Part shown: one piece after another, positions 26,311-47,268 of the stretch | Position numbering within the stretch: position 1 is the first letter of the stretch | How the letters are laid out: each line of letters opens with the position of its first letter | Source of the DNA: Halarcobacter sp. | GTDB lineage: Bacteria; Campylobacterota; Campylobacteria; Campylobacterales; Arcobacteraceae | DNA length: 64,000 nucleotides | Reading direction: 5' to 3' | NCBI GenBank assembly: GCA_050296315.1 | Contig: JBNKRE010000006.1 | Coordinates: 89,760 to 153,759, forward strand | Program-made: the position numbers and the translations under genes | The notes under the pieces: model-generated | What the model saw: the letters and a program-made list of their open reading frames with translations, nothing else | What the model was told of the DNA's origin: nothing | Database searches by the model: none

Positions 26311-26622
26311 TTATTCAAATAAAATGTATATAATATTATTTTCTACTTTAGTATCAAATGCTTTTGTACAGCCACCATTTTCTTCCAAAGCTTGTCCATT
26401 GTCTAGGTTTAAATCTAGGTTATGTAATGGGCAAGTTATTTTATGTTCATGAACTAAACCTTCACTTAGTTTTCCATTTTTATGAGGACAAGAGTTTTTC
26501 AAAGCAAAGATTGAACCATCTTTTGTTTTAAATATGGCAATTTCAGTTTCATTAACTTCAACTTTTCTAGCTCCCATTGAAGGGATATTTTCAACTTCAG
26601 TTATTTTAATCCAAGTTGCCAT
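26311..26622 (-). CDS. nirD: Nitrite reductase small (Rieske) subunit
   Basis: MATWIKI start at 26622 after GAGGAG RBS; CPHKNG and CPLHN Rieske motifs. Confidence 0.93.
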   Translation of the reverse strand: MATWIKITEVENIPSMGARKVEVNETEIAIFKTKDGSIFALKNSCPHKNGKLSEGLVHEHKITCPLHNLDLNLDNGQALEENGGCTKAFDTKVENNIIYILFE

Positions 26623-26623
26623 T

Positions 26624-29086: not shown

Positions 29087-29150
29087 AATTTTTCCTTTTC
29101 TTTCTATTTTGTAATTATTCCATAGTTTTCAAATTAAATACCCAGCAAAA

Positions 29151-29167
29151 TGTATATTTAATAAACA
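29151..29167. promoter_or_regulatory. 17-bp operator-like motif upstream of nirB
   Basis: TGTATATTTAATAAACA; near-identical copies at 31916 and 44843. Confidence 0.65.
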
Positions 29168-29175
29168 TATAAAAC

Positions 29176-30903
29176 TTAGTCTAACATTAAAATTAATATT
29201 ATCGATAATTCAATCAATGTTAATGTTTGCCAAAAGACTAATGGATTTCTTTTCATTAGTGGGGGTCGATTTCTTTTTAGAAAGTCTTCATTTGGATTGA
29301 ATAAGTCATATATAAATTCGGAGAGTTCACCATATCTGTTTATTGGGTCAATCTCTAAAGCTTTTTTCAAAGCTTCATCAACCCAAAGTGGAACTAAAGA
29401 ATCATCTTTATCAAAATAAAGTGGATTGTATTTTAGTTTTTTCATATCAGATTTAGTACTACATCTAGCAATTTTAGTATCGTATGGAAATTTTCCAGAT
29501 ATCATCTGATATGTTATAACTGCAAGTGAAAATATATCTGAACGGTTTGAGCCTCTATCTCCCCAAAAATATTCTGGAGCAGAATATAAAGCTGTACCTT
29601 GAAGCTCTTCTTGAACTAGATGAGTATTTATATCTTGAATCCCTTCCACTTTTGAAGAACCAAAATCTATTATTTTTATAGAGTCTGTTTCATCTATTAG
29701 AATATTTTGAGGACGGAGGTCTTGATGAATCATTTCTAATCTATGAAAAGTATATAGACCCTTTGCAATTTGTTCTACTATATCTCTTACTTTTTGTAGT
29801 TTTGGCTTTGGATTATCAACTATCCATTGGCTTAAGGTTTGACCTTTTATATATTCTGTTACATTATATAAGTAGTTTTGTCTTCTATTTTGGTGGTAAG
29901 ATTTTACTACATAGGCATTATTGATTTTTTTTGCAATCCAATCTTCAAGCATAAATCTTTCTAAATATGCTTTATCATCTTTTAATTCTGTTGAAGGAAT
30001 TTTTATAATAACTTCTTTTTGAGTTTCATCATCAATGGCTAAATAAACATGGCTTCTAGGACTTGAACTGATATTTCTAATTATTGTATATTCATCAAAT
30101 TTTTCTCTAGCTTCTAATATAGGGGGAAGAGGTTTTAATTCAAGCTGTGAGTTTATATCTTTGATCTCTTTATTTGGAAGATTTATTACTTTTATGATTT
30201 GGATAGTTAAGTTGTCTTTACTTCCATTTTCTATAGATTTTTCAACTATATCTTTACATAAACCATCATAATCATCTTTATAACTATCAAGTAGTTTTAT
30301 AATCTCTTCTAAATTTATATGTTCATAAACACCATCTGTTGCTAAGACAAAAATATCCTCTTTTTCTAAATCAGTACAATCATAATCTACACTTAAAATT
30401 GAGTCTAGACCCATTGCCCGACTTAGATAATTTTCCTCTTTTGATATATATAATCTGTGGTCAGATGTTAGTTGTTGTATATTATTATCTCTTATTTTAT
30501 AAACTCTACTATCCCCTATATGAAATATATGTGCCTTAGTTGATTTGAGTATTATTGAACTAAATGTACAAACATACCCTTTATCTTTATTGTATCTATG
30601 AATAGATTGTTTTGTTTGAGAATATAACCAAGAGTTGGTAGCAGTTAAAACTCTATGGGCTGATTTTTTAACTGACCAAGTCTGAGAGGTACAATAGTAA
30701 TCTTCTATGAAAGAATTTATGGAAATTTTGCTGGCAATATCACTTACATCACTACTACTTATACCATCAGCAAGAGCAACAGCAATACCTTTATACTTTA
30801 ATAAATAATCGTTTGGTGTACTAATGGCATGGAAGTCTTGATTTACTTCTTTGACACCTTTTGATGAATATTGTCCTGAAATAATTTGTAATTGATTTTT
30901 CAT
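29176..30903 (-). CDS. Bifunctional PP2C phosphatase / Ser-Thr protein kinase with C-terminal TM
   Basis: LADG, HIGDSRVY, ATDG, KDN (PP2C); IIK, HQDLRPQN, IIDFG, YSAPE (kinase). Confidence 0.92.
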   Translation of the reverse strand: MKNQLQIISGQYSSKGVKEVNQDFHAISTPNDYLLKYKGIAVALADGISSSDVSDIASKISINSFIEDYYCTSQTWSVKKSAHRVLTATNSWLYSQTKQSIHRYNKDKGYVCTFSSIILKSTKAHIFHIGDSRVYKIRDNNIQQLTSDHRLYISKEENYLSRAMGLDSILSVDYDCTDLEKEDIFVLATDGVYEHINLEEIIKLLDSYKDDYDGLCKDIVEKSIENGSKDNLTIQIIKVINLPNKEIKDINSQLELKPLPPILEAREKFDEYTIIRNISSSPRSHVYLAIDDETQKEVIIKIPSTELKDDKAYLERFMLEDWIAKKINNAYVVKSYHQNRRQNYLYNVTEYIKGQTLSQWIVDNPKPKLQKVRDIVEQIAKGLYTFHRLEMIHQDLRPQNILIDETDSIKIIDFGSSKVEGIQDINTHLVQEELQGTALYSAPEYFWGDRGSNRSDIFSLAVITYQMISGKFPYDTKIARCSTKSDMKKLKYNPLYFDKDDSLVPLWVDEALKKALEIDPINRYGELSEFIYDLFNPNEDFLKRNRPPLMKRNPLVFWQTLTLIELSIILILMLD

Positions 30904-30958
30904 ACTATCGACCTTAATGAAAACAAAAGTTTAAATATTTGTCTTCATTAAAATAGAT

Positions 30959-30988
30959 AAAACTTATAGGCCTTAGCCTATAAGTTTT
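30959..30988 (-). terminator. Hairpin after FNT gene
   Basis: AAAACTTATAGG / CCTATAAGTTTT 12-bp inverted repeat overlapping the stop. Confidence 0.6.
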
Positions 30989-31829
30989 ATGCAGCTCTCT
31001 TTGAGCTTGAGTTTGAAATTGATAAATCTCTTTTTGCACCAGTTTTAACATGTGTTGCATAGATCATAAGACCAACAAATAGTAATCCTCCAACCATATT
31101 TCCAAGAGCTACAGGAAGCTCATTCCATAATAAGTAATCAGAAATTGTAAAGTTACCACCCATGATTAATGAAAAAGGGAATAAAAACATATTTACAATT
31201 GAGTGCTCAAATCCCATAAAGAAGAAAAGCATAATTGGCATCCACATTGCAAGCCATTTACCAGAAACTGATGTTGAAATCATTGCTCCAACAACACCCA
31301 TAGAAACCATCCAGTTACATAACATACCTCTAATAAATACAGTAATCCAACCATCTAATCCATATGCAGAGTAGCCAAGTGTTCTAGCTTCACCAATTTT
31401 TGCAACTTTAGCTGCAATTGCTCCACCATCAGTGTTAAATCCATAAGTAAAAATGAAAGCCATCATTGCAGCAACAGTAAAAGCACCAGCAAAATTACCT
31501 AATGCAACTAATCCCCAGTTTCTAAGAATTTGTCCAATTGTAACACCTGGTCTTTTATCAATCCAAGCTAATGGAACCAATGTAAATACACCAGTTAAAA
31601 GGTCAAATTTCATTAAATACAACATAATAAATCCAACAGGGAATAAACAAGCTCCTAAAATAGGAGAACCCGATTTCATTGCAACTGTTATTGCAAAAAC
31701 AGCAGCTAAAGCTAAAATTGCTCCTGCCATATACGCTCTAATTAACGTGTCCCTTGTAGACATAAAAACTTTTTGTTCACCAGCATCAACCATTTTGGTT
31801 GCAAACTCAGATGGTTCTATGTAAGCCAT
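30987..31829 (-). CDS. nirC: Formate/nitrite transporter (NirC-like)
   Basis: FPVGF, DLLTG, GNFAG, GMLCNWMV, GFEHSIVNM, GNMVGG. Confidence 0.85.
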   Translation of the reverse strand: MAYIEPSEFATKMVDAGEQKVFMSTRDTLIRAYMAGAILALAAVFAITVAMKSGSPILGACLFPVGFIMLYLMKFDLLTGVFTLVPLAWIDKRPGVTIGQILRNWGLVALGNFAGAFTVAAMMAFIFTYGFNTDGGAIAAKVAKIGEARTLGYSAYGLDGWITVFIRGMLCNWMVSMGVVGAMISTSVSGKWLAMWMPIMLFFFMGFEHSIVNMFLFPFSLIMGGNFTISDYLLWNELPVALGNMVGGLLFVGLMIYATHVKTGAKRDLSISNSSSKRAA

Positions 31830-31915
31830 AAATGCTCCTTTTTCTTTTTTAATTTTGATATGTTGAAATTAAACAAATAAAAGTGAGGAAAAAAATAGGA
31901 TAAATAAAGTATGAG

Positions 31916-31932
31916 TGTATATAAAATAAACA
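31916..31932. promoter_or_regulatory. 17-bp operator-like motif between FNT and histidine kinase genes
   Basis: TGTATATAAAATAAACA, identical to 44843-44859. Confidence 0.6.
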
Positions 31933-31933
31933 A

Positions 31934-33532
31934 GTGAAGAAAATTTTTGAAAATTTATTGTTTTATAATAAAAAAAACAAAGGAAATAGTATTAAAAAGT
32001 ATATAACTTTTATTTTTTTATTCTTTTTATTATCTTTATTTGTAATTATTGGTTTTACAGTTAGAGAGTCCTATAAAGTGCAAGAGAAGTTATTAGAAGA
32101 TAGTTTAGAAAAAAAAGCTCTTGCTATATTTAATCTTATAGTTGATATGAGACATTGGAATGCACAATTTGATGGGGTATATGTAAAAACAGAAGAGCTA
32201 AAACCTAATCCCTATTTAAACCCAGGATTTATAAAATCTGAAAATAAAGATACCTTAGTATGGATAAATCCTGCATTTATGACAAGACAAATTTCAAATA
32301 TTGCAAATCAAAGGGATGGGTTTAGACTAAAAATCACAAGTAATAAACTGATAAATAAAAACAATGCTCCAGATGCGTATGAAAAAAAGATACTTGACTA
32401 TTTTGATGAAAACCCTGAAGTTCCATATTATTGGAAAATAGAAGATAATACTTTTAAATTTATGGGTGCACTTAAAACAGAGCAAGATTGTTTGAAGTGT
32501 CATGCAAAACAAGGTTACCATGTAGGGGATGTTAGAGGTGGTATTAGTGTATTCTTTGATGCAAAACAAGAATATACACAACTAGAAGAGATAAATAAAG
32601 ATAAAACCCAAACAATAATCTATCTAATAATTGCAGCAATTGGAACACTTATAACTTTTGTAATCTATCAAAGTATAAAAATAAGAGATGAAAAAAAGAT
32701 TTCTTTATTAAATAGAAGTTTAGAGAAAAAAATAGATGAATTAGATGAGTTCAATAAAACCCTACACAACAAAGTAAACATAGAGGTTAAAAAACAAAGG
32801 GAAAAAGAAAACTTACTTATCCAACAATCAAAACTTGCAGCTCTTGGAGAGATGATTGGAAATATTGCCCATCAATGGAGACAACCAATTAGTGCAGTTA
32901 GTGCAATAATGATGAATATAAAATGGACAGCAATTTCACAAGGTGTAGACAAAAATTTTTTAGATGAGAGAATGAAAGAAGCAAATGAACAACTTAAATA
33001 TATGTCTCAAACCATAGATGATTTTAGAAGTTTTTTTAAACCAGATAAAGAGAAGGAGTATTTTAATCTAAAAATAAAAGCAAAAAATGCATATAAAATT
33101 GTAAAAGATACATTACAAAACAATAATATAAACCTTCAAATAATTTGTAAAAAAGATGATATTACGGCATATGGTTATCCTAATGAATTCTCTCAAGTTA
33201 TATTAAATCTAATCTCAAATGCAAAAGATGTATTAATTGATAGGCAGATAAAACAGCCCAAAATTGTAATAGATATATATGAAGAGGAAAATAAACTTTT
33301 TTGTGCAGTAAAGGATAATGCTGGGGGAATAGAAAAAAAATATATAGATAGAATATTTGAACCATATTTTACGACAAAAGAGACAGAGGGTACAGGAATA
33401 GGGCTTTATATTTCAAAAGAGATTATAGAAAAACATATGTCGGGTTCTTTAATAGTTAAAAATAGTAATGAGGGAGCAGTATTTATAATAAATCTTCCTA
33501 AAATTGAGGTAAAAGATGATGAAAGAGCTTGA
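31934..33532 (+). CDS. Sensor histidine kinase with periplasmic c-type heme (DUF3365-like) domain
   Basis: WINPAFMTRQIS, TSNKLINKNNAPDAYE, CLKCH, GDVRGGISV; H-box GNIAHQWRQP; GTG start uncertain. Confidence 0.88.
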   Translation: MKKIFENLLFYNKKNKGNSIKKYITFIFLFFLLSLFVIIGFTVRESYKVQEKLLEDSLEKKALAIFNLIVDMRHWNAQFDGVYVKTEELKPNPYLNPGFIKSENKDTLVWINPAFMTRQISNIANQRDGFRLKITSNKLINKNNAPDAYEKKILDYFDENPEVPYYWKIEDNTFKFMGALKTEQDCLKCHAKQGYHVGDVRGGISVFFDAKQEYTQLEEINKDKTQTIIYLIIAAIGTLITFVIYQSIKIRDEKKISLLNRSLEKKIDELDEFNKTLHNKVNIEVKKQREKENLLIQQSKLAALGEMIGNIAHQWRQPISAVSAIMMNIKWTAISQGVDKNFLDERMKEANEQLKYMSQTIDDFRSFFKPDKEKEYFNLKIKAKNAYKIVKDTLQNNNINLQIICKKDDITAYGYPNEFSQVILNLISNAKDVLIDRQIKQPKIVIDIYEEENKLFCAVKDNAGGIEKKYIDRIFEPYFTTKETEGTGIGLYISKEIIEKHMSGSLIVKNSNEGAVFIINLPKIEVKDDERA

Positions 33533-34199
33533 AAGACTAAAAAATAAAACTATTTTATTAGTAGAAGATGAAGATATCATAAGAGATAATATCAGCTCAA
33601 TGTTAAAATTCTTTTTCAAAGAGGTTTACACAGCAGTTGATGGATATGATGGTTTAGATATGTATGAAAAACATCTACCAGATATTGTAATGACAGATTT
33701 AAAAATGCCAAATATGAATGGTTTCGAACTTTTACAAGAGTTAAAAAACAGAGCCTGTAGTGCTTACACAATAATAGTATCAGCTCATACAGATACGCAG
33801 TTTTTAATAAATGCAATCCACAATGGTGTAGATAGATACATAATAAAACCAGTAACAGAAGAGGAACTTTTTGAAGGCTTTAAAGCATATTTTGAAAAGA
33901 TAGATAAAATCTTACCACAAATTGTTGAGGTAACAAATGAGGTAAAAATAGATTTTGATAATAATCTTATCATTAACAAAGAGGAAAAATTTCACACAAA
34001 TAAAAAAGAAACACTTCTTTTAAAACTTCTATGCTCAGATATAAATAAAACTTTTTCTTATGAAGAGATAGAGCTACAAGTTTGGGGAAGTGAATCTATG
34101 AGTTTATCTGCTATAAGAAGTGTTGTAAGGGATTTACGAAAGAAGATTGGTAGTGAGTTTGTAGTTAATGTTTCTGGGATGGGGTATAGGCTAAAATAA
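33516..34199 (+). CDS. OmpR-family response regulator
   Basis: LLVEDE, TDLKMP, KP; winged-helix C-terminus (RDLRKKI, GMGYRL). Confidence 0.92.
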   Translation: MMKELERLKNKTILLVEDEDIIRDNISSMLKFFFKEVYTAVDGYDGLDMYEKHLPDIVMTDLKMPNMNGFELLQELKNRACSAYTIIVSAHTDTQFLINAIHNGVDRYIIKPVTEEELFEGFKAYFEKIDKILPQIVEVTNEVKIDFDNNLIINKEEKFHTNKKETLLLKLLCSDINKTFSYEEIELQVWGSESMSLSAIRSVVRDLRKKIGSEFVVNVSGMGYRLK

Positions 34200-34207
34200 T
34201 TTTTTGA

Positions 34208-34233
34208 AATTCCTATGTTTTAATATAGGAATT
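34208..34233 (+). terminator. Hairpin after response regulator
   Basis: AATTCCTAT / ATAGGAATT. Confidence 0.5.
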
Positions 34234-34513
34234 CATAAAGAAGATAATTCTTAGATTTTGAGACTGATCAGAATTTTGTGCTAGTACCCGATAGTTATTA
34301 AAATTATATCACCGTGTAGCTTTTGCTACTTATATAGAGAAAACTCCAGAACCTACAGGTTGTTGAACTTATGTTTTTATAGCTCATTTTTGTGTCCTAT
34401 AAAGTGTTGACATTCCACATATCCAACATTAATTATTGTTAAGTCATTTTTTCTTTGTTGACATGAGTAATCACTAAAACTTCTTACATTTCTAACATCT
34501 AATATATTTTTTG

Positions 34514-34534
34514 AAAAAGGAGTATCTCCTTTTT
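34514..34534. terminator. Terminator-like hairpin upstream of hsdM
   Basis: AAAAAGGAG-TAT-CTCCTTTTT. Confidence 0.5.
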
Positions 34535-34714
34535 AAATTTGATAAAAAGAATAGTTACTATTACTTTATTTAAAATTAAACATAAATGCTTTAGTCTTTT
34601 ATGTATCTTGTATTAAATTAATAATAAATTTAATAGAAGATACAAGAAATAATCATTATAAAACTTATAATAAAGTATAATTCATGACTTACTTGATAGA
34701 TATATAGGAAATTA

Positions 34715-37264
34715 ATGAAACGTAAACTTACCCTTTCTTGGCTTGAAACTTTTTTGATGGATGCTTGTGATATTCTTAGAGGAAATATGGATGCATCAGA
34801 GTTCAAAGAATATATTTTTGGAATGCTTTTTTTAAAAAGATTAAATGATAAATTTGAAAACGATAAAATAAAAAAAGAGTTTGAACTTAGAAAGAAATAC
34901 ACAGATGAAGCTAAGATAAAAAAAGCTCTTGAGAAAAGAAGTTCTTATCAGTACTATGTACCAGAGTCTGCTTTATGGAAGCATATCAAAAAAGATAAAG
35001 ATGGCAATACTATAAATGATGGTATCTTACATGTTAAACATGATGTTGGGAACAGACTAAACAAAGCCCTCTCAGAACTAGAAGATGAAAACCCAGACAA
35101 ATTGAGTGGTGTACTTACAAACATAAACTTCAACAGAACCATAGGAAAAAGTAAAAATGCACTCAATGATGAAAAACTTATTGAGTTCATAAAACACTTC
35201 AACTCTGTAGAACTTATAGATGATAATTTTGAGTTTCCTGATATCCTTGGGACTGCTTATGAATATCTTATAAAATATTTTGCAGATAGTGCAGGGAAAA
35301 AAGGTGGAGAGTTTTATACACCAAATGAGGTGGTAAAACTTTTAGTGACTATCCTCGAGCCATCGGAGACTACAACTATTTATGATCCTACTTGTGGATC
35401 AGGTGGTATGCTTATAGAGGCTAAAAACTATGTTCAAGCTAGATATGGAAGTAGTGACAAGCTTAGTTTTTATGGGCAAGAGCTAAGTGGTACTACATGG
35501 TCACTTTGTAAGATGAATATGCTTTTTCATGATATCTTCGATGCAAATATTTATCAAGGTGATACTCTTACAGAACCACAGCATATAGAAAAAGGGGAGC
35601 TTCAACGCTTCGATATGGTTATGGCAAATCCACCGTTTTCAGCTAACTATTCAGATATTAAAAGCTTTAAAGATAGATTTCACTACTGGATGCCAAAGAA
35701 GAAAAAAGCTGATTTTATGTTTGTGCAACACATGGTAAGTGTACTAAAAGATGATGGGCGTATGGGTGTAGTGATGCCCCACGGGATATTATTTCGTGGG
35801 TCTGAAGAAAAAAGTATGAGAGAGTGGCTAGTGAATAGAGGCTATCTTGAGACTGTGATAGGACTTCCATCTGGACTTTTTTATGGTACTGGTATCCCTG
35901 CATCTCTTCTTATCATAAATAAAAAGGGTGCTTCAAAAAGAGATAAAGTACAGTTTATAAATGCAGATAGAGAGTACAAAGAGGGTAAAAACCAAAATAA
36001 ACTTAGACCTGAGGATATAGCAAAGATAAGTTATGTATATAAAGAAAAACTAGAACTTAAAGGATACGCCACTTCAATACATAAAGATAAACTAGAAGAG
36101 TACAACTTTAACATAAGAAGATATGTGGACAACTCACCACCTCCAACACCCCATGATGTACATGCTCACCTTTATGGTGGAGTACCAGTTGAGGAAGTAG
36201 AGTCTTTTAAAAACTACTGGGTAAATTATCCTACCCTAAAAGATGAGCTATTTGAAAGCTTAAAAGATGGATATATGAGTTTTAGACTATCATCAAAAGA
36301 TGAGATAAAAGAGCTTTTAAATTCACATAAAGATATAAAATCAAAGCAAATAGAGTATATAGATGCTATTACAAAATGGTGGAGTGTAAACTTACCAAAG
36401 CTTGAAGAACTACCAAGTAAAAAGAATGTATTTGCCCTATATCGTGACTTTTCAGAGTCTATCGCTAACGATTTTTCAGCTTTAGGAATACTAGATATCC
36501 ATAAAAGTCGTGGTGCCTTTGCAAGCTACTGGAATAAGCTTGAAGTAGATTTAAAATCTGTAAGTGCAAGTGGCTGGAACAGTGAGTTAATACCAGATGA
36601 TGAAATACTAGCCTCACAGTTCCCTGAAGTACTACAAGAGCTAAACCATAACCAATCAAGGGTAAATGAGCTAGAAAACCTTTTTAAAGAGGTAAATGAA
36701 GTAGAAGAAGATGAGTATAATGAAGAGGACTATGAAGTCTTTCCTAAAGCTATACTAAAAGAGTATAGAGATACTCTAAAGTCTGTAAATAGTGATATAA
36801 AAACTCTAAAAAAAGATATAAAAGCTCTAGAAGTGAGGATAAAAGCAAATGACCAAACAAAAGAGCTAAAAGAACAAAAGCTTCAAAAAGAGGAAAAACT
36901 AGCCCAAGCAGAGTCTCAAAAAACCACTATAGATACAAAGCTAGAAAATCATAAAGCCCTAGAAGATGAGCTAAAATCTTGCAAAGCCACCATAAAAGAG
37001 ATAAAAGATAAAAAAGAGATTTTAGTAGAAGAATCAAAAGGTAAAATCTCTACAGAGGAAGCAAAAGAGCTTATACTAAAAAGATGGAATGACACCCTTT
37101 ACTCTACAGTGATGGAGTATGTAAGTAGATATGAAAGGGAGCTGATAGTAAAACTTGAAGAGCTTTTTGTAAAGTATGAGCATACTTTAGTATCTATACT
37201 TGATAGTAGAAATAAAGCACAAGATGAATTGGATAGTTTTTTAGTGGAATTAGGTTATGAGTAA
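34715..37264 (+). CDS. hsdM: Type I R-M methyltransferase subunit (m6A), long form
   Basis: [22 protein letters not shown] (motif I), NPPF (motif IV), PHGILFRG. Confidence 0.96.
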
Positions 37265-38516
37265 TAATTGGCAAACTAGAGCAATTTTTGAGTTTGCAGA
37301 TGTAATATCAGGGGGAACACCATCTACAACAGTTAAAAATTATTGGGATGGAGATATAGTCTGGGTAACACCTGCTGATTTAAGTAAAATAGATAAAGCT
37401 TTTTTATATACAAGCAATAAAAAAATTACAAAAGATGGATTATTAAACTCTTCTGCAAATATAATTCCTAAAAATAGTATTGTTATGTCATCCAGAGCAC
37501 CTATTGGCTATTTTGCAGTTTCACAAGTTGATTTTTCTACAAATCAAGGCTGTAAAAGTATTTATTTGAAAAAAGGACATTCATCTTTATTTCATTATTA
37601 TAATTTTAAATTCAATGTTAATAAATTTAAAAGTAAAGGAGAAGGGACAACATTTGCTGAAATCTCTAAAAAAGAGATTGAAAAATTAGAATTTTCTTTT
37701 CCTCAATTGTTAGAACAAAAAAAAATAGCAAAAATACTTTCCACTTGTGATAGTGTGATAGAAAAAACAAAAGAAGCTATAAAAAAATACCAAGCTATAA
37801 AAGCTGGGATGACGGATGACCTTTTTACCAGAGGAATAGACCCAGTGAGTAAAAAACTTCGTCCGAGCTATAAAGATGCCCCAGAGCTTTATAAAAAAAG
37901 TGAATTAGGGATGATTCCTAAAGATTGGGATGTGGATTGTTTAGATAATATTACTATAAAAATAGGAGATGGAATTCACACTACTCCAAAATATACAGAA
38001 GGAACAGAATACTTTTTTATAAATGGTAATAATTTGAAAAATGGAAAGATTATTTTCTCAAAATCAACTAACAATGTTAGTCAAGATGAATATAAAAGGT
38101 TTTATAAAGACTTATCTTTGAATACTATTTTATATTCAATTAATGGTACTATTGGAAATATTGCATTTTATAATGGCGAGTTTGTGATACTAGGAAAAAG
38201 TACAGCATATATAAGCTTTAAAAATTTGGATTTAATGAATTATATTTATTATTTAATACAAACTCATTATATTAATAAATTCTATTCATTAGAATTAACA
38301 GGTTCAACAATCAAAAATCTATCTTTAGCAGTAATAAGAAAAACACCAATTATATTACCCAAAAAAGAGGAATATATAGAAATAACAAATAAATTAAATA
38401 CAATATACAAAAAAATCCAAACAGAACAAAACACCCTAAAAAAATATGAGCAGATAAAAAAAGGTCTGATGGATGACCTACTTACAGGTAAAAAAGAGGT
38501 AAAAGTAAAGGAGTAA
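37257..38516 (+). CDS. hsdS: Type I R-M specificity subunit
   Basis: Two TRDs separated by EQKKIAKIL...[10 protein letters not shown]; C-terminal [11 protein letters not shown]. Confidence 0.95.
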
Positions 38517-38520
38517 AGCT

Positions 38521-41500
38521 ATGGCAGAGTATTTAAATGTAGAGAAGCCTTTTTTAGATAGATTAGAGCAGATTGGTTGGAGTGTGATAAACCATGGAGC
38601 AAGTGGTATTCCAAGTGACCCAGCTATCTCAAAACGCTCTAACTTTAAAGAGGTGACTCTAAAACAAAACTTTATGGATGCCATATATCATATAAACCAA
38701 GTAGATGGAAAGTCTTGGCTTACTCCTAAACAACTTGAACATATCTACGATGAGCTTATCTCAGTAGAGCGTTCAAACCAAGCACTACTTGAAGCAAACA
38801 AAGAAATTTTTGAAAGACTTATAGGAGCTATAAAAACCACAGTAGATAAAAATAAACTCACAGGTGAAGATGAGCCTACTGTAAAGCTTATAGATTTTGA
38901 AGAGTTTTCAAACAATGACTTCACAGCCATAAATCAGTTTCGTGTAGATACTCCCCATGGAGCAAGGAAATCTATCATTCCAGATATTGTACTTTTTGTA
39001 AATGGTTTGCCTTTTTGTGTGATAGAGTGTAAAGATGTAGATGTTAGTGACCCACTCTCAGAGGGTATAAATCAAATACAAAGATATGCAAATACTAGAG
39101 AAGATGACTTTGGTATAAAAGAGGGTGAAGAGAGACTATTTTACTACAATCTTTTTAGTATAGCAACCCATGGACAAGAGGCTAGGTTTGGTACTATTAC
39201 TGGAGATTTTGAGTACTACTTAAACTGGAAAGATATCTTTCCTCTTATCTATAAAACCTTTGATATTACAAACTATAGTGATGAAGAGAGAAAAAGATAT
39301 AGTATCAATGATTTACATGTAAATGAACCAAAAGTAAGACAAGAGGTGACTATACATGGAATGTTAAATCATGAGATACTTATAGATGTACTAAAACACT
39401 TCACACTATTTAAAACTTTTGACAATGGTGGTACGGCAAAGATAGTTTGTAGGTATCAGCAGTATAGAGCAGTAGGCAAGATAATAGAGCGTATAAGAAA
39501 CGGTGAAGATAGCAAAACAAAAAGTGGAGTAGTATGGCACACTCAAGGGAGTGGTAAGTCGCTTACTATGATATTTTTTGTAAGAAAACTAAGAAGCCAA
39601 AAAGATTTAAAAGATTATAAAGTTATCATAAGTGTAGATAGGACAGATTTAGAAGACCAGCTTAGTGATGATGCAAAGCTTACAGGTGAGTTTAAAGAGA
39701 AAAATGTAGTAAATAGTAGAAAAGAGCTTTATACTAAGCTAGACAATGACTCGTCTGATTTAAATATGGTGATGATTCACAAGTTTGTACAAGAGGAGCT
39801 AAAGCACTCAAAAACTTTGATGAAACTCTATGAAGAAAAAGGGGAAGTACCTGAGTTTAAAAAGTTTGAGAAAGTAAACGATTCTGATAGGATAGTGATA
39901 CTTATAGATGAAGCCCACAGAACTCAAGGTGGAGAGATGGGTGATAATATGTTTAGTGCTTTTCCTCAAGCTTCAAGAATAGCTTTTACAGGTACACCAC
40001 TTCTTACAAAAAGACACAAGCAAAAGACCCATGAGAGATTTGGGGATAATAAAGAGTTTATTGATACTTATAAGATAAAAGAGGCAGTAAGAGATAGAGC
40101 AACGCTTGATATAATCTATCAAGGGAAAACAAGCGATGATAATATCAAATCAAAAGAGGCTTTTGACAGGGAGTTTGAAGATGTATTTAAACAAAGATCA
40201 AAAGATGAAAAAGAGGAGATAAAAAAACGCTACGGTACTATGATAGCTTATCTTGAAAATATGGATAGGCTTAGAAAGATTGCTCGTGATATGGCAAACC
40301 ACTACATAGATGAGATACTACCAAATGGATATAAAGCTATGGTAGTAGCTAGCTCTATTGTAGCAGCTGCTAGATATGAGTATTTACTTTTAGAAGCTAT
40401 AAAAGAAAGACTTGAACTAGAAAAAAGTAAAGATGAAAAAGATGAAGAACTTATAAAACAAATAGAGTTTCTAGATGCTTGTACAGTTGTAACAAAACAA
40501 GATAATAACGAAGAGGGCTATATAAGTGTAGCTAGAACAAAAGCCAAAGATAAAAAAGCTGTGGATAACTTTAAAAAAGATTTTGACTATGCTAAGCCTG
40601 AGACAGGCGTAGCATTTTTATGTGTATGTGATAGACTTCTTACAGGATTTGATGCGCCTATTGCACAAGTGATGTATCTAGATAAAAATATAAGAGAACA
40701 TGACTTGCTTCAAGCAATAGCTAGGGTAAACAGAACAAAAGGTATAAAAGAGCACGGTATCTTGGTGGATTATTTTGGAGTATCAAATAATCTAAAAGAG
40801 GCTTTAAATATATGGGGTGCAGAGGATGAAGATGATATCAAAGAGTTGCTTGAATACTTTAAAGATATAAATAAAGAGATACCAGTACTACAAGCAAGAT
40901 ATAACAGACTTCTTCAACTTTTTGAAGACAAAGGGATAAAAGAGTTTAAAAATTTTGTGGAGCAAAATATTGAAGATAAAGATAAAGAGTTTAAGGTAGC
41001 TGAATCGTGTATCGAATTGGCACAAAGTGTGCCTTTTAGAGCTGAATTTGATACATATTTAAAAGCATTTTTTGATTCACTTGATTTACTTTTTAACTCA
41101 GATGTAGCAAAAGAGTATTATATACCTGCAAAAAGATTTGGCTATCTTTTAATGAGAATAAGAAACAGATACAAAGATCAAACTATGGATTTAAAGTGGG
41201 CTAAAGCAAAGGTGAGAAAACTTATAGATAAATACCTAGAGAGTTTGGGTATAGATAGTAAAGTAGCTCCTATTAGCTTGCTTAGTGATGAGTTTTTAGG
41301 TGAGAGTAAAAAGCATAGTCATACTCCAAAAGCTCAAGCCTCAGAGATGGAACACGCTATTAGAAGACATATAAAAGTAAATATGGAAAAAGACCCAGGA
41401 TTATATAAAAGATTTTTAAATAGGATGGAAGATATCCTAAAAAGATATAAAGAGAACTGGGAAACTATAATCTCAGAATTTATAAAACTAAGAGATGATT

Positions 41501-41850
41501 TATCAAAAGGTAGAGAAAATGAAAATGAAGAGAAAGGATTAGATACACAAGAGTTGCCATTTTTTGATTTGATAATAGATGAGATTTACCAAGATAAAAG
41601 TATAGATGAAGATGAAAAAGAAGCAGTGAAGTCTTTAACTATTGAGATAGTAGAACTTTTACAAGATGCTATAAATAAACCAAACTTTTGGAAAGAGAAA
41701 GAATCTCAAAGAAAAGAGCTTCAAGGTAAGCTAGACGATATACTTTTATTTACAGAGATAGAAGCAATAAGTGATAAATATGAAAAACTTAGCGTGGAGA
41801 TTATGGCACTTGCAAAGATAAGACATCAAGAACTTACAGGTGAGATATGA
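38521..41850 (+). CDS. hsdR: Type I R-M restriction subunit
   Basis: PDIVLFVNGLPFCVIECK nuclease, HTQGSGKS Walker A, DEAHR, FTGTP, LLTGFDAP, QAIARVNR. Confidence 0.96.
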   Translation: MAEYLNVEKPFLDRLEQIGWSVINHGASGIPSDPAISKRSNFKEVTLKQNFMDAIYHINQVDGKSWLTPKQLEHIYDELISVERSNQALLEANKEIFERLIGAIKTTVDKNKLTGEDEPTVKLIDFEEFSNNDFTAINQFRVDTPHGARKSIIPDIVLFVNGLPFCVIECKDVDVSDPLSEGINQIQRYANTREDDFGIKEGEERLFYYNLFSIATHGQEARFGTITGDFEYYLNWKDIFPLIYKTFDITNYSDEERKRYSINDLHVNEPKVRQEVTIHGMLNHEILIDVLKHFTLFKTFDNGGTAKIVCRYQQYRAVGKIIERIRNGEDSKTKSGVVWHTQGSGKSLTMIFFVRKLRSQKDLKDYKVIISVDRTDLEDQLSDDAKLTGEFKEKNVVNSRKELYTKLDNDSSDLNMVMIHKFVQEELKHSKTLMKLYEEKGEVPEFKKFEKVNDSDRIVILIDEAHRTQGGEMGDNMFSAFPQASRIAFTGTPLLTKRHKQKTHERFGDNKEFIDTYKIKEAVRDRATLDIIYQGKTSDDNIKSKEAFDREFEDVFKQRSKDEKEEIKKRYGTMIAYLENMDRLRKIARDMANHYIDEILPNGYKAMVVASSIVAAARYEYLLLEAIKERLELEKSKDEKDEELIKQIEFLDACTVVTKQDNNEEGYISVARTKAKDKKAVDNFKKDFDYAKPETGVAFLCVCDRLLTGFDAPIAQVMYLDKNIREHDLLQAIARVNRTKGIKEHGILVDYFGVSNNLKEALNIWGAEDEDDIKELLEYFKDINKEIPVLQARYNRLLQLFEDKGIKEFKNFVEQNIEDKDKEFKVAESCIELAQSVPFRAEFDTYLKAFFDSLDLLFNSDVAKEYYIPAKRFGYLLMRIRNRYKDQTMDLKWAKAKVRKLIDKYLESLGIDSKVAPISLLSDEFLGESKKHSHTPKAQASEMEHAIRRHIKVNMEKDPGLYKRFLNRMEDILKRYKENWETIISEFIKLRDDLSKGRENENEEKGLDTQELPFFDLIIDEIYQDKSIDEDEKEAVKSLTIEIVELLQDAINKPNFWKEKESQRKELQGKLDDILLFTEIEAISDKYEKLSVEIMALAKIRHQELTGEI

Positions 41851-42527
41851 GAATACATAACTTAGATATTGATATAAAAAGAAGTAGTAGAAAAACTGTT
41901 AGTATTTTTATAGAACGAGATGGTAGTGTATCTGCTCGTATACCAAAAGATTTAAATGATGAACAACTAAGTGAAGTGATAAAAGCAAAAGAGTATCAGA
42001 TACATAAAAATCTAGCCCAATGGAAACAGCTTAATGAGACTAAAATAGAGCGTGAATATGTAAATGGGCAATCTTTTTTATATCTAGGAAGAAACTATCG
42101 TTTAAAACTTGAGAATGAAAACTATAAGGGTATAAAACTAAAAAATGGATACTTTTTACTCTCAAAAGATAATAAACAAAAAGCAAAAGAGTATTTTATA
42201 GAGTTTTACAAAGCAAAACTACAAGAAAAAATCTTACCCTTAGTAGAACAGTATAAAAATCAACTAGGTGTAAAACCAAATGATATAAAAGTGATGGAGC
42301 TTCAACATCGTTGGGCATCATGTAGTGAAAAAGGAAATCTAAATTTTCACTGGAAGTGTGCTATGGCTCCAATAGATACTTTAAAATATATAGTAATCCA
42401 TGAACTTGTACATTTAATCCATCCAAATCATACTACAGCTTTTTGGAATGATGTGGATAAATTGGTACCTGATTATGAAAGACAGGTTAAGTGGCTTGAA
42501 CTTAATGGTGCAGGGATGGATTTATAA
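41847..42527 (+). CDS. YgjP/DUF45-like (M48/SprT-type) zinc metallohydrolase
   Basis: RWASCS, LNFHW, YIVIHELVHLIHPNHTTAFW; overlaps hsdR stop (ATGA). Confidence 0.88.
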   Translation: MRIHNLDIDIKRSSRKTVSIFIERDGSVSARIPKDLNDEQLSEVIKAKEYQIHKNLAQWKQLNETKIEREYVNGQSFLYLGRNYRLKLENENYKGIKLKNGYFLLSKDNKQKAKEYFIEFYKAKLQEKILPLVEQYKNQLGVKPNDIKVMELQHRWASCSEKGNLNFHWKCAMAPIDTLKYIVIHELVHLIHPNHTTAFWNDVDKLVPDYERQVKWLELNGAGMDL

Positions 42528-42735
42528 ATTTATTAAAAAATAAGACTTAATGGCAACTTTTAAATAACTTTTTCCACAACCTCTTATATTTGGAACACAA
42601 AATACTAAAATAAGTTTTGGGTGTTCCACAAAGTGTTCAAAAAATAAAAACTACAAAGCTCCACAAACTTTAAGGGATTATGGAATAAATAATAAGTTTA
42701 AAGCTTCAACCAATCCTCCTTATTTCTAACACTGC

Positions 42736-44724
42736 CTAGATTTTATATACTCTAACAGCACTATGATTATAATCTGGTTCAAAAGATTCTGGATCTAATA
42801 AATCATTTGTTAGATAATTTATATCCCTATTACTAACAGGGACAAAAATAGTATTTTCTTTTATATCTGGTGTGATGAGTGCTTTTGAAAAAATCTCTCC
42901 TCTTATTGATGAGATTTTTATTTCATCCCCATCTAAGATACCAAGTTCTAAAGCATTTACTGGATTTATCTCACAAAAGTTTAACTCTTTGTATTTTAGT
43001 AAAGTTTTTGGAAGATTTGTTTTTGTTCCTGTGTGCCATTGGTCTCTTGTTCGTCCTGTTAATAGGATAAATGGATACTCTTTTGAGGTTTTTTCACTTA
43101 AGTTTTTATTTTCTACAAAAAATAAATTTGCTTTTTTGTTTTCTGTTAGGAATTCACCCTTTTCGTAGATATCTTCACCCCAAATATATGGGTTTTCTTT
43201 TATTTGTTCATATGAGGTTTTATGTATATCCATATGATTATTTAGTTTTGTCATTTGTTGAAACTCTTCAAAAATTTGTTTAGGGTTTTCATAATTGAAG
43301 GCAAATTTATAACCTAACTCTTGGGCTAATAATTGGAAAATCTCCCAATCTGCTTTACAATCTATTGATGTTCTTGTTAGTTTCTCTTGTTTTGTAATTG
43401 TTCTATCAAGGTTTGTTTGAGTTCCCTCTTTTTCTCCCCAAGGAGCAGCTGGTAGTCTTATATGTGCAAATGGTGCTGTTTCTGAGTTTTCGTAGGCATT
43501 TATCTCAACTACCATTGGTATTTTTTTAAGAAGTTCTTCTGTTTTATTTCTATTTGGAAGATGATAAACTGGGTCTGTATGACATATTATAAGAACATCA
43601 AGGTTAGCTTCTAACATTTGTGTTGCTGTAAGTCCTGGTTTATTATCTATTTTATTTGTATTCCAAAATTTTGAAACCTTTTCAATCGATTTTTTATCAA
43701 AACCTAGATGCACTGCCAGCATTGTTGAAAGTCCACCAACCTCTCTTCCTCCCATTGCATTTGGTTGTCCTGTTAGGGAAAATGGTCCATTTCCTCTTTT
43801 AAAGATTTTCCCTGTTAGAAGGTGTATATTTATTAGTGATAAGTTTTTATCAACTCCTTGAACCGATTGGTTTAATCCCATAGTCCAAGCTGTTATAATA
43901 TTTGGTGAGTTTTTAAATAGTTGCCAAAACTCTTCAAACTGTTCTTTTGAAAAACCTGTTCTTTTTAACATTTTAGTTACAGGTACTCTTTTTAATTTAT
44001 TTTTCAACAATTCAAAGTTATTTACATGGTTTTGTACAAAATCATGGTTTACTAAATCCTCATCTATAATTCTTTTTGCTAAAAGATTAAAAAAGTCTAT
44101 ATCTGCTCCTGGTTTTATAGGAAGATGCAAATCAGCCGCTTTTGCAGTATCTGTAAATCTTGGATCAATTACTACTATTTTCAAACCATTTTTTTTTGCT
44201 CTTTTTATTTTATTGTGAAATACAACATGTGCTTCTGCTGTATTTGCCCCAACTAATATAAGTAAATCAGAGTGATTAATATCATCCATTCTTACAGGTA
44301 CATAATCCGCTCCAAAAGCTTTTTTATGAGCCACAACTGCACTTGACATACACGTTCTACTATTTGTATCTACATTATTAGTTCCTAAAAAACCTTTCCC
44401 AAGTTTATTAGCAATATAATAATCTTCTGTTAATAATTGTCCTGATAGATAAAATCCAATTTTATCACTTGGGGTCTGTTTTAATCTATTTGCAATAGTT
44501 TCTATAGCTTTTTGCCAATCAGTTATTTTATATTCATTATTTATATTATTTCTAATATGTGGTCGTAGAAGTCTAGATGGAGTTTGAATACTTATTAGTT
44601 CAGAAACCCCTTTTGAACAAACCTTACCTTCATTTATAGGATAAGCAACATCACCAAGAAGTTTTTCCTTATCAAACTCTAAACCACATCCGACACCACA
44701 GTATCCACAAACAGACTTTATCAT
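42736..44724 (-). CDS. nasA: Assimilatory nitrate reductase catalytic subunit
   Basis: CGYCGVGC, CSKG, DTNSRTCMSSA, GQPNAMGGREVG, TGRTRDQWHTGT; no Tat signal. Confidence 0.92.
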   Translation of the reverse strand: MIKSVCGYCGVGCGLEFDKEKLLGDVAYPINEGKVCSKGVSELISIQTPSRLLRPHIRNNINNEYKITDWQKAIETIANRLKQTPSDKIGFYLSGQLLTEDYYIANKLGKGFLGTNNVDTNSRTCMSSAVVAHKKAFGADYVPVRMDDINHSDLLILVGANTAEAHVVFHNKIKRAKKNGLKIVVIDPRFTDTAKAADLHLPIKPGADIDFFNLLAKRIIDEDLVNHDFVQNHVNNFELLKNKLKRVPVTKMLKRTGFSKEQFEEFWQLFKNSPNIITAWTMGLNQSVQGVDKNLSLINIHLLTGKIFKRGNGPFSLTGQPNAMGGREVGGLSTMLAVHLGFDKKSIEKVSKFWNTNKIDNKPGLTATQMLEANLDVLIICHTDPVYHLPNRNKTEELLKKIPMVVEINAYENSETAPFAHIRLPAAPWGEKEGTQTNLDRTITKQEKLTRTSIDCKADWEIFQLLAQELGYKFAFNYENPKQIFEEFQQMTKLNNHMDIHKTSYEQIKENPYIWGEDIYEKGEFLTENKKANLFFVENKNLSEKTSKEYPFILLTGRTRDQWHTGTKTNLPKTLLKYKELNFCEINPVNALELGILDGDEIKISSIRGEIFSKALITPDIKENTIFVPVSNRDINYLTNDLLDPESFEPDYNHSAVRVYKI

Positions 44725-44842
44725 CTATTAATCCTTACTTTTTCCCACTTTTTTTATTTACAATTATAAAGTTTGGAATTATATCATTTATATTTTATAT
44801 ACTGTATTATAGAATATAATTTATGTAAAATTAAGATTATAA

Positions 44843-44859
44843 TGTATATAAAATAAACA
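44843..44859. promoter_or_regulatory. 17-bp operator centred between divergent nasA and nrtA promoters
   Basis: TGTATATAAAATAAACA; TATAAT (minus, 44806-44811) and TACAAT (plus, 44891-44896) each 31 nt away. Confidence 0.72.
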
Positions 44860-44938
44860 ATAAGTTGAATAATTTATATTTTTTTCATGTTACAATGCTA
44901 ATATCAACAAAACTTAAAGGTGAAATTAAGGAGAATAA

Positions 44939-46321
44939 ATGTTAAAACAGGTTTTAAAAATTGGTTTAGGTGTATCAGTTGTAGCTTCTACATTATTAGC
45001 AGCTCCAGAAAAAACGAAATTAAAAATAGGTTTCATTGCATTAACAGACTGTGCCCCATTGGTTATTGCAAAAGAGAAAGGTTTTTTTAAAGCTGAAGGT
45101 TTAGATGTTCATGTTGCAAAAGAGGGTGGTGGTTGGCCAGGGATTCAACAAAAAGTTATTTCTGGTGAATATGATTTCTCTCATGCTCTTGCAGGTATGC
45201 CAATTGCAGCAACTTTAGGGATAAATGGTGATGCACATTTACAAGCACTTTTATCATTAGATTTTAATGGTAATGCTATCACTTATGGTAATTATATTAT
45301 AGGTGAAATGGAAAAATATGGATTAGATAAAACAAAAAGACCTGTTAGTGCAGATAGTTTAAAAAAATATATAGATGCAAAACATAAAGCAGAAGGAAAC
45401 AATTATCAACCTCTTAATTTTGGTATGGTTCACCCCGTTTCAACTCACAACTATGAGTTAAGATATTGGATGGCAGGTTCTGGTATTCAACCAGATGAGG
45501 ATACGACTATCAAACCTTTCCCTCCACCAACAATGCCACAAAACTTAATTGCTGGAAATATTGAAGGTTACTGTGTTGGTGAACCTTGGAATTCAAGAAT
45601 TGTACTTAAAGGTGCTGGAAGTGCCCTTGTAACAAATTATGATATTTGGAATAACAATCCTGAAAAAGTTTTACAAGCAAGAGCAGATTTTGTAAAAAAA
45701 TATCCTGAAACAACAAAAGCTGTTATGAGAGCAGTTATAAAAGCTCAAATGTGGTTAGATGAATCTTGGGAAAATAGAGAAGAAGCAATTAAATACTTAG
45801 CAAAAAGAAATTATGTAAACGCTCCTGTAAATGTTTTAAGAAAATCTATGTCGGGAACTTTCCTTTATAATAAAGGTGTAGATTCTGAAAATCCTATGTT
45901 TAATGTGTTCGCAAACTATTATGCTTCGTATCCATTTTATTCTCATGGTATGTGGTTTATAACTCAAATGTATAGATGGGGACAATTGACACAACCAGTT
46001 GATATGAAAGCAACTATTGAAAAAGTTTATAGACCTGATTTATTTAGTGAAGTTGCAAAAGAGGTTGGATATGAACTTCCACCAAGTGCTTGGAAAATTG
46101 ATGGTATAGATAAATACAATAAATTTATTGATGGAAAAGTATGGGATCCAAACAAAGCAGTTGAGTATATCTATGATACATTTAATGTTACACACCCCGT
46201 AGTAAAAAAAGAGGATTTATCAAAAGTAAACACTTGGAAAGTTGAAACAAAACAACCTTCTTATGTATGTCCATATGGACCAGCAGGTTGTGCAGACGAA
46301 AAGTTTGTAACAAAAAAATAA
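44939..46321 (+). CDS. nrtA: Nitrate ABC transporter substrate-binding protein (NrtA/CmpA family)
   Basis: [43 protein letters not shown]. Confidence 0.93.
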
Positions 46322-46342
46322 AAAGATAAAAGCCTAAGGGCT

Positions 46343-46422
46343 TTGTCTTTTAATATGCTTAGTTTGAAGTTTTATCTTCTTTCTTCTTTGTGTATCTATC
46401 AACTAAGCATATTAAAGGACAA
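46343..46422 (+). other. Long intergenic stem-loop (22-bp stem, 36-nt pyrimidine-rich loop)
   Basis: TTGTCTTTTAATATGCTTAGTT / AACTAAGCATATTAAAGGACAA (one G-U). Confidence 0.75.
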
Positions 46423-46448
46423 GTCTTAATTAGTAAAAAAGGAAAGTA

Positions 46449-47258: not shown

Positions 47259-47268
47259 AGGCTGAAAT

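Follow-up and report, generated by a model that had tools for sequence, protein, structure and literature searches.

Which regulator switches on nitrate assimilation in Halarcobacter sp. (Campylobacterota; Arcobacteraceae), and does it serve nitrate alone or the nitrogen supply of the cell as a whole? The question is raised by a 64-kb stretch of the genome (GenBank assembly GCA_050296315.1, contig JBNKRE010000006.1; C6:89760-153759 in the contig numbering used here), hereafter 'the window', which encodes a nitrate-assimilation cluster and carries three copies of a 17-base-pair (bp) motif. An initial annotation of the window wrote this motif as TGTAT-N7-AAACA and proposed an operator for nitrate assimilation, bound by either the local response regulator or a global nitrogen regulator. 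Our analysis indicates that the three 17-mers are probably operators of a global nitrogen regulon and not nitrate-specific elements, because the same site precedes amtB, glnA, nifA-like, ureAB and urtA genes elsewhere in the genome.

A symmetric dyad in the promoters of the cluster

TGTAT-N7-AAACA occurs exactly three times in the window, always on the forward strand, at the positions given in the initial annotation (29151, 31916 and 44843). All three copies are intergenic and lie in the promoter regions of nirBD, of the FNT channel and the histidine kinase/response regulator pair, and of nasA and nrtA. A shuffled window is expected to contain 0.54 matches, and 2 of 100 shuffles reach three. 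In the genome as a whole (3.91 Mb, 221 contigs, 28% GC), both strands together contain only 22 matches, three of them within this one 15.7-kb cluster. A position-weight-matrix scan of the window found no further site above 9 bits.

To place the motif in a wider context, we compared 61 loci fetched by NasA from Arcobacteraceae, Sulfurimonas and Sulfurovum. The nearest, L001, is that of an Arcobacter sp. metagenome-assembled genome whose NasA is 95% identical. Most of these loci carry a dyad upstream of nasA, either TTGTATA-N5-TATACAA or variants such as TTGATTA-N5-TAATCAA, and the nasA/nrtA dyad is kept in about 50 of them. The nasA site of the closest relative is a perfect palindrome (TGTATATTTTATATACA), from which the window copy differs by one base. 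The functional element is a 17–19-bp palindrome, (T)TGTATA-N5-TATACA(A). TGTAT-N7-AAACA is a local sample of this symmetric dyad, its AAACA arm being a tolerated variant of ATACA, and the consensus of the initial annotation is accordingly replaced. A symmetrised matrix of 85 orthologous sites places the information in a core TGnnTA-N5-TAnnCA, with T at position 5 (0.97), A at position 6 (0.94), and T and A at positions 12 and 13.

The dyad also keeps its distance from the genes. In a relaxed scan (TTGnnTA-N5-TAnnCAA, at most one mismatch) of the related loci, its centre lies 72–79 nucleotides (nt) from the start codons of nasA, nirA, nirB, the MFS nitrate/nitrite porter and two further gene families (73–76 nt for orthologous nirB), and ∼88 nt from that of nrtA. 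The distances in the window match those of related loci: 73 nt for nirB, and, from the single dyad shared by the divergent operons, 88 nt to the nrtA ATG and 127 nt to the nasA ATG, the last value recurring in the closest relative. Ahead of nasA, nrtA, nirB, nirA and nitrate-porter genes, the palindrome is conserved among Arcobacteraceae, Sulfurimonas and Sulfurovum.

Promoter architecture

At nasA, nrtA and nirB the initial annotation had placed the −10 box 31 nt from the motif, a spacing that is right to the base (Table 1). This phasing is general. When 118 orthologous promoters are oriented towards their genes, 94 have a hexamer matching at least five of the six TATAAT positions 31–32 nt from the 17-mer; every other offset collects 0–10 promoters, a flat background. 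The same phasing is seen in at least 17 promoters of the Halarcobacter genome. The −10 boxes are of the sigma-70 type, often with an extended TGn, and no −35 consensus was seen between dyad and −10 box. If the −10 box spans −12 to −7, the centre of the dyad falls at about −52. As judged from sequence, so strict a phasing, immediately upstream of where a −35 box is missing, suggests that the dyad is an activator site.

We therefore picture, as a working model, a dimeric regulator that would bind the dyad and activate transcription when fixed nitrogen is scarce. The single dyad equidistant from the divergent nasA and nrtA −10 boxes would allow both operons to be switched on together, and the same regulator would also act on nirBD and on the operon of the Tll0287-like kinase and OmpR-type regulator.

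Promoters of the nasA type contain a second conserved module between operator and −10 box. Also written AATCTTAAnTTTACATTAA or CTTAAnTTTACAT, it is found in nasA, nirA, Fer4/DmsC-like and 'unk196' promoters across three families and is missing from amtB, glnA, nrtA and MFS promoters. Its sole exact intergenic copy in the Halarcobacter genome is that of the nasA promoter. The module AATCTTAAnTTTACATTAA may be a nitrate/nitrite-specific control element. We considered CTTAAnTTTACAT as a site of the local OmpR-type regulator and rejected this assignment, as the presence of the module is uncorrelated with the local kinase.

The second site and the start of the kinase gene

The copy at 31916 had been described as falling outside the 31-nt spacing and as abutting the kinase start. 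Neither description holds. A perfect TATAAT lies exactly 31 nt downstream on the kinase side, and the apparent overlap of operator and kinase arose because the first GTG of the open frame had been taken as the start codon. The frame reaches this GTG only since no stop intervenes. In the related loci L014 and L045, in-frame stops stand 7 and 1 codons, respectively, upstream of a conserved AT(T/C/A) AAA AA(G/A), which is preceded by a Shine-Dalgarno sequence AAAGGA (31979-31984 in the window). No ATG, GTG or TTG then occurs ahead of the conserved transmembrane segment of the kinase (window 31934-31993 and the orthologous region of L001, L014 and L045). Given the upstream stops and the lack of a canonical start before the transmembrane segment, the kinase appears to begin at a non-canonical isoleucine codon: ATT 31991 in the window, ATC in L001, ATA in L014 and ATT in L045.

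Operator copy 2 is conserved in the same three loci; L001 and L045 have 31 nt between operator and −10 box, L014 has 21 nt. The L014 spacing is one helical turn shorter, which moves the centre of the dyad to about −42. The operon of kinase and response regulator belongs to the nitrogen regulon as a member, not as its master. The circuit may thus have two tiers, in which a general nitrogen signal would come first and the local Tll0287-kinase/OmpR sensor, probably specific for nitrate or nitrite, second.

On the other side of copy 2, towards the genes of FNT and the PP2C/kinase fusion, there is no −10 box at 31 nt. A GTGAGGAAAAAAA box stands between the FNT start and the operator (31883-31895) and is kept in L001, L014 and L045; it is possibly a promoter or regulator site of the FNT/PP2C-kinase operon.

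A probable nitrogen regulon across the genome

A matrix scan of the genome returned 58 matches of at least 11 bits. At 15 bits or more, 16 of 17 matches are intergenic, compared with 12.8% intergenic sequence by the same rule (p = 8e-14). The initial annotation had pointed to the glnA, amtB and urease promoters as places where a global nitrogen regulator would reveal itself, and the scan of these promoters is positive: the site stands ahead of amtB, glnA, ureAB and a nifA-like gene, which supports the global alternative over a local one. Two amtB genes, glnK, glnA, the nifA-like gene, a regulator operon, amino-acid uptake genes and two chemoreceptor-like genes share the phasing as well as the site; the copies ahead of ureAB, urtA and amine-catabolism genes do not have it. 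The proposal of an 'operator for nitrate assimilation' thus survives in part. What stands is a real, conserved operator in constant phase with its promoters; what falls is the restriction to nitrate assimilation.

The remaining targets (named by Pfam; Table 1) are catabolic, transport and regulatory genes. nifH (C2:270797-271648) lies 13 kb from the nifA-like gene, and the arrangement looks like a predicted cascade from the global regulator via the nifA-like gene to nitrogen fixation. Operators at two CheW-domain genes hint at nitrogen-regulated chemotaxis. A GntR/FCD regulator with two upstream operators was tried as the master regulator and rejected; it occurs in only 2 of 26 operator-bearing genomes and is therefore placed among the regulon members.

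A candidate regulator

In the related loci, the neighbourhood of the nas clusters, up to 6 kb away, contains no conserved DNA-binding gene. The initial annotation had noted that the window lacks an ANTAR regulator; a search of the genome likewise gave no ANTAR match, though control genomes gave no signal either. A different candidate comes from the Fis-type helix-turn-helix (HTH) family, which has three matches in the genome: the nifA-like gene, a frame of 252 amino acids (aa) at C1:195389-196147, and C6:17654, a weak match below the family cut-off. By this count of three, the 252-aa frame is the only match that adjoins nitrogen genes.

The 252-aa gene follows a gene for a 287-aa membrane protein and is divergent from amtB-glnK-amtB, with two operators upstream. 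This amtB/PII synteny and the upstream operators are kept in 29 of 30 Arcobacteraceae loci. The synteny is also kept in Sulfurovum-type loci, where the dyad lies directly upstream of the regulator gene. All 30 genomes with nas operators encode one copy of the protein. The 287-aa protein (C1:194499-195362; L065:3188-4051) has no Pfam or NCBIfam match; its gene is upstream of, and co-transcribed with, the 252-aa gene in most Arcobacteraceae loci, and its product is a possible signalling partner.

The 252-aa protein resembles a strongly shortened NtrC. Residues 2-45 correspond to the Walker A region of NtrC1 and residues 100-143 to its PPLRER region, with ∼54 residues where NtrC1 has ∼108. Residue 2 aligns with NtrC1 residue 16, so that the protein starts directly at the Walker A region, and no receiver domain was found by Pfam, NCBIfam or the structure model. 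The sigma-54 activator profile PF00158 matches over positions 4-47 of 168 only (20.1 bits, cut-off 20.2). None of 20 aligned orthologues contains GAFTGA. At the other end, HTH_8 scores 23.4 bits in the genome search (cut-off 22) and 20.4 bits in hmmscan, and Fis chains align to residues 183-245. An AlphaFold model of a 98%-identical orthologue (mean predicted local distance difference test score, pLDDT, 84.8) is a compact AAA+ fold plus HTH, with NtrX, PspF, NtrC1, ZraR and VpsR as its best PDB matches. The recognition-helix segment LGxNRxTLRKK is invariant among the aligned orthologues, and this invariant helix (NRxTLRKK) matches the invariant operator core. Half-sites occur as TGTATA, TGATTA and TGTTTA, with positions 3–4 varying even inside single sites; correlating these positions with an invariant helix is uninformative.

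In an even sample of the class, the protein is present in 34 of 151 genomes, and the two largest families lack it. Of these 34 genomes, 20 contain the strict 19-mer, as against 13 of the 117 without the protein (p = 4e-8, phylogeny not corrected). The strict 19-mer is too stringent to mark single genomes (it has three matches in the Halarcobacter genome) and serves for this presence/absence contrast only. Three genomes of other families have the 19-mer immediately upstream of the regulator gene. An Aliarcobacter genome (G029; C2:43820-44572, L116) has a single in-frame TGA in its regulator orthologue.

From this associative evidence we consider it somewhat probable that the 252-aa protein, an NtrC/Fis-type protein without receiver domain and GAFTGA, is what binds the dyad. 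Such a ∼250-aa NtrC descendant, left with half of the AAA+ core and with neither receiver nor GAFTGA loop, would occupy position −52 of sigma-70 promoters as one dimer. Nitrogen status may reach it via PII/GlnK, via nucleotide or 2-oxoglutarate binding, or via the co-transcribed membrane protein. Its regulon would span nitrate and nitrite assimilation, ammonium uptake, glutamine synthetase, urease and the nifA cascade. We see an even chance that in free-living Campylobacterota (Arcobacteraceae, Sulfurimonadaceae, Sulfurovaceae and relatives) the entire nitrogen regulon is controlled in this way, by one minimal NtrC descendant with phosphorylation-free sensing.

Several observations weigh against this picture. 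The weight matrix was built from sites pre-selected by pattern, so its fixed positions are partly circular, and the intergenic enrichment is somewhat inflated by the higher AT content of intergenic relative to coding DNA. The activator model does not fit every site: strong sites at a luciferase-like gene, DctP, urtA and the amine dehydrogenases have no −10 box at 31–32 nt. The Pfam scores of the HTH and AAA+ parts of the candidate are at or below the curated cut-offs. In Sulfurimonas, the regulator gene is neither beside nitrogen genes nor preceded by an operator. In one operator-bearing genome of the Sulfurovaceae (G009; C4:312619-313338, L144), the only copy has 7 stop codons; dyads persist near this stop-riddled orthologue. 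Finally, the protein and the 19-mer both mark free-living lineages, and their co-occurrence is not phylogeny-corrected.

Alternative explanations

The dyad could be a global nitrogen operator bound by another regulator, LysR-type or of another family, in which case the NtrC remnant would be merely a co-regulated neighbour of amtB. We regard this as rather unlikely, yet it has points in its favour. The dyad holds the T-N11-A of LysR-type sites, and the second nasA-type module over the −35 region makes the pair resemble LysR recognition and activation sites; the remnant gene is unlinked to nitrogen genes in Sulfurimonas, and the assignment of every candidate binder is predicted. However, neither a LysR-type nor any other DNA-binding gene is conserved within that 6 kb around the nas clusters, and the second module is missing from most regulon promoters. 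The NtrC remnant is the only tested candidate found in all 30 operator-bearing genomes, has operators of its own in several families, and has a DNA-binding domain of a type with known sites of the same 17-bp geometry. Unlikely to a greater degree is that the same site and protein mainly repress under nitrogen excess. Some sites are very close to start codons (one 32 nt from a Peripla_BP_2 gene and, in Sulfurovum-type loci, one 24 nt ahead of the regulator gene), and a −10 box at 31–32 nt is missing from several strong sites. But the −52 centre, the rigid 31–32-nt phasing and the missing −35 box form an activator signature; a repressor needs no such phasing, and a site at −52 leaves RNA polymerase unoccluded.

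The other readings have far less in their favour. A nitrate-specific operator with the local OmpR-type response regulator (33516-34199) as its binder, an option of the initial annotation, is suggested by the presence of regulator and kinase inside the cluster, by the site ahead of their operon, and by the pair adjoining nasA or FNT in L001, L014 and L045. It is very unlikely in view of the regulon content, with the same site ahead of amtB, glnA, ureAB and nifA-like genes, and of the partner kinase, whose close orthologues are limited to 8 of 30 operator-bearing genomes, with 3 further ones at 40% identity. Moreover, the usual targets of OmpR/PhoB-type proteins are direct repeats, and the dyad is an inverted repeat, not a direct repeat with ∼11-bp periodicity. 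Slimmer still is the case for a TnrA/GlnR-type regulator of the MerR family, as in Bacillus. The length of 17 bp, the outer TG...CA and the regulon content (nas, nirB, amtB-glnK, ure, glnA) are the same, and TnrA activates from about −50. Yet the inner bases differ (T5 A6 and T12 A13 in our site, A5 and T13 in TnrA/GlnR), and among the MerR-family frames scanned, three of the four in the genome, there is no TnrA/GlnR, with 26 bits for the TnrA model against a cut-off of 140. NCBIfam assigns one of these three frames to the HspR equivalog (117 bits, cut-off 105) and leaves two under every cut-off. A chance likeness of AT-rich intergenic DNA, to which a genome of 28% GC and the 2 of 100 window shuffles with three matches might point, has a negligible probability. 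The restriction to 22 matches genome-wide, the conservation across three families at fixed distances, the sharp −10 peak at 31–32 nt and the functional coherence of the target genes all argue against it.

Gene content of the window

Along the window, the order is nirD/nirB, site 1, the PP2C-kinase and FNT genes, site 2, the histidine kinase and response regulator, a type I restriction-modification island, nasA, site 3 and nrtABC (Table 1). The island fills a variable slot between the response regulator and nasA (34199-42755). Homology to the closest relative, L001, breaks off at 34198 and is picked up again at 42755, and the corresponding place in L001 is taken up by ∼1.9 kb of unrelated DNA. 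The PP2C/Ser-Thr kinase fusion is the most widely conserved regulatory gene adjoining nitrate/nitrite transporter genes (31 of 61 nasA loci), with FNT as its neighbour in the window and the MFS porter in other loci. Its place beside transporter genes suggests post-translational control of transport. An Rfam scan of 24–50 kb of the window gave no family matches.

Table 1. Operators, promoter elements and genes of the window (positions in window coordinates), and operator-associated genes elsewhere in the genome (positions with contig prefix). Distances are from dyad centre to start codon, unless a −10 box is named.
Feature	Position	Strand	Remarks
Operator copy 1, TGTATATTTAATAAACA	29151..29167		ahead of nirBD; centre 73 nt from nirB GTG start; 16.9 bits
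Operator copy 2, TGTATATAAAATAAACA	31916..31932		ahead of sensor kinase/response regulator operon; 95 nt from divergent FNT start; 13.6 bits
Operator copy 3, TGTATATAAAATAAACA	44843..44859		common to divergent nasA and nrtABC promoters; 20.4 bits
Extended −10 TGgAATAAT, nirBD	29114..29122	−	31 nt from operator copy 1
−10 box TATAAT (perfect), kinase/regulator operon	31964..31969	+	31 nt from operator copy 2
−10 box TATAAT, nasA	44806..44811	−	31 nt from operator copy 3
Extended −10 TGtTACAAT, nrtABC	44888..44896	+	31 nt from operator copy 3
Second conserved module of nasA-type promoters, AATCTTAATTTTACATAAA	44820..44838	−	between operator and −10 box, about −40 to −22
nirD and nirB, NAD(P)H nitrite reductase	26311..29086 (nirB 26624-29086; nirD 26311-26670)	−	Pfam
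PP2C phosphatase/Ser-Thr kinase fusion	29176-30903	−	Pfam
FNT nitrite/formate channel	30987-31829	−	Pfam
Tll0287-like sensor histidine kinase	from apparent ATT start 31991; operon to 34199	+	Pfam and start-codon analysis
OmpR-type response regulator	33516-34199	+	Pfam
Type I restriction-modification island (hsdM, hsdS, hsdR, YgjP-like peptidase)	34715-42527		
nasA, assimilatory nitrate reductase	42736..44724	−	Pfam
nrtA, nrtB, nrtC/D, nitrate ABC transporter	44939..48069 (nrtA 44939-46321; nrtB 46449-47258; nrtC/D 47269-48069)	+	Pfam
Two amtB genes flanking PII gene (glnK)			dyad at 76 and 77 nt
glnA			dyad at 76 nt
ureAB			dyad at 71 nt; weaker or less well-phased copy
urtA-like urea-type binding protein			dyad at 99 nt; weaker or less well-phased copy
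nifA-like gene (GAF/sigma-54/HTH)	C2:284389-285936		operator C2:284306, 72 nt; TATAAT at 32 nt
NAD-glutamate dehydrogenase			dyad upstream
Two quinohemoprotein amine dehydrogenases			dyad upstream, without canonical phasing
Ureidoglycolate lyase and TRAP transporter			dyad upstream
Amino-acid and other substrate-binding proteins			dyad upstream
GntR/FCD regulator	C2:304850-305524		two operators upstream
Two large CheW-domain chemoreceptor-like proteins	C10:61909-64476; C11:97605-100274		one with dCache; high-scoring operators, canonical phasing

Significance

Campylobacterota of the Arcobacter, Sulfurimonas and Sulfurovum types are dominant in sulfidic, vent and sediment habitats and link the oxidation of sulfur to the turnover of nitrogen there. 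In a full-text literature search, we came upon no account of a nitrogen operator or regulator for this phylum. What is new here is a global nitrogen operator together with its probable activator, a putative and strongly reduced NtrC-type protein. The analysis yields a precise cis-element, a predicted regulon of ∼20 promoters in the Halarcobacter genome that includes a nifA-like gene, and a single candidate regulator, which together make the question of nitrogen control directly testable. Should the candidate be right, no smaller NtrC derivative would be known, and the protein would exemplify how an enhancer-binding protein can be reduced to a classical sigma-70 activator.

Comparison with known nitrogen-control systems

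In the way the promoters would operate, the closest analogy is TnrA/GlnR of Bacillus: a 17-bp palindrome, an overlapping regulon and activation just upstream of the −35 region. The TnrA/GlnR box has the consensus TGTNAN7TNACA (PMC4335299). The initial annotation had called the window motif similar to this box without being one, and rightly so, since length and outer TG...CA agree while position 5 is T and position 13 is A. The differences thus lie in the inner conserved bases and in the regulator, as no TnrA/GlnR member is among the MerR-family frames scanned in the Halarcobacter genome.

Cyanobacterial NtcA offers a second parallel. This CRP-family protein binds GTA-N8-TAC, a 16-bp dyad (GT-N10-AC) centred at −41.5. 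Like the regulator proposed here, it is a global nitrogen activator, acting on nir-nrt-nar operons at sigma-70 promoters without a −35 box. The Halarcobacter dyad differs in having GT-N11-AC (17 bp) and a centre at about −52, the comparison being one of sites, with no search for an NtcA homologue. With both TnrA and NtcA, our system would have in common that a single dimer sits at nitrogen-assimilation promoters immediately ahead of an absent −35 box.

The likeness to proteobacterial NtrC (NRI) extends to the protein. NtrC sites have the form TGCACC-N5-GGTGCA, and on these generally known sites the two systems share a 17-bp dyad of TG-N13-CA geometry. The regulon is of the same kind (glnA, amtB-glnK, nas, ure and a cascade to nifA). 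In Klebsiella, NtrC acts on nifLA, which the step from the operator to the nifA-like gene parallels. The 252-aa protein keeps an NtrC-like Walker A, a PPLR-R-ED segment and a Fis-type HTH. In contrast to NtrC, it has no receiver domain and no NtrB partner, and its AAA+ core is ∼50 residues shorter and lacks GAFTGA. The sites also differ. Ours is AT-rich and consists of a single dyad at about −52, whereas NtrC enhancers lie at −100 or further, and the target promoters, as far as their sequences tell, are of the sigma-70 type with a fixed −10 box and not sigma-54 GG-N10-GC.

These last features are shared with a set of atypical enhancer-binding proteins without GAFTGA: Rhodobacter capsulatus NtrC, Caulobacter NtrC, NtrX, VpsR, TyrR, PhhR and HupR. 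Lacking the sigma-54 contact loop, such proteins use the housekeeping polymerase (10.1101/2023.06.06.543975; PMC6158489). Two of them, NtrX and VpsR, rank with the structures that match the AlphaFold model best, and the alphaproteobacterial NtrCs also control nitrogen assimilation. The modelled protein likewise combines a GAFTGA-less AAA+ fold with an HTH, and its predicted promoters are consistent with sigma-70. All known members, however, have retained a full-size AAA+ domain together with a receiver or sensory domain at the N-terminus. The 252-aa protein has neither, is about half their length and comes from a different phylum. By descent, the predicted regulator belongs with these atypical GAFTGA-less sigma-70 enhancer-binding proteins, reduced further than any of them.

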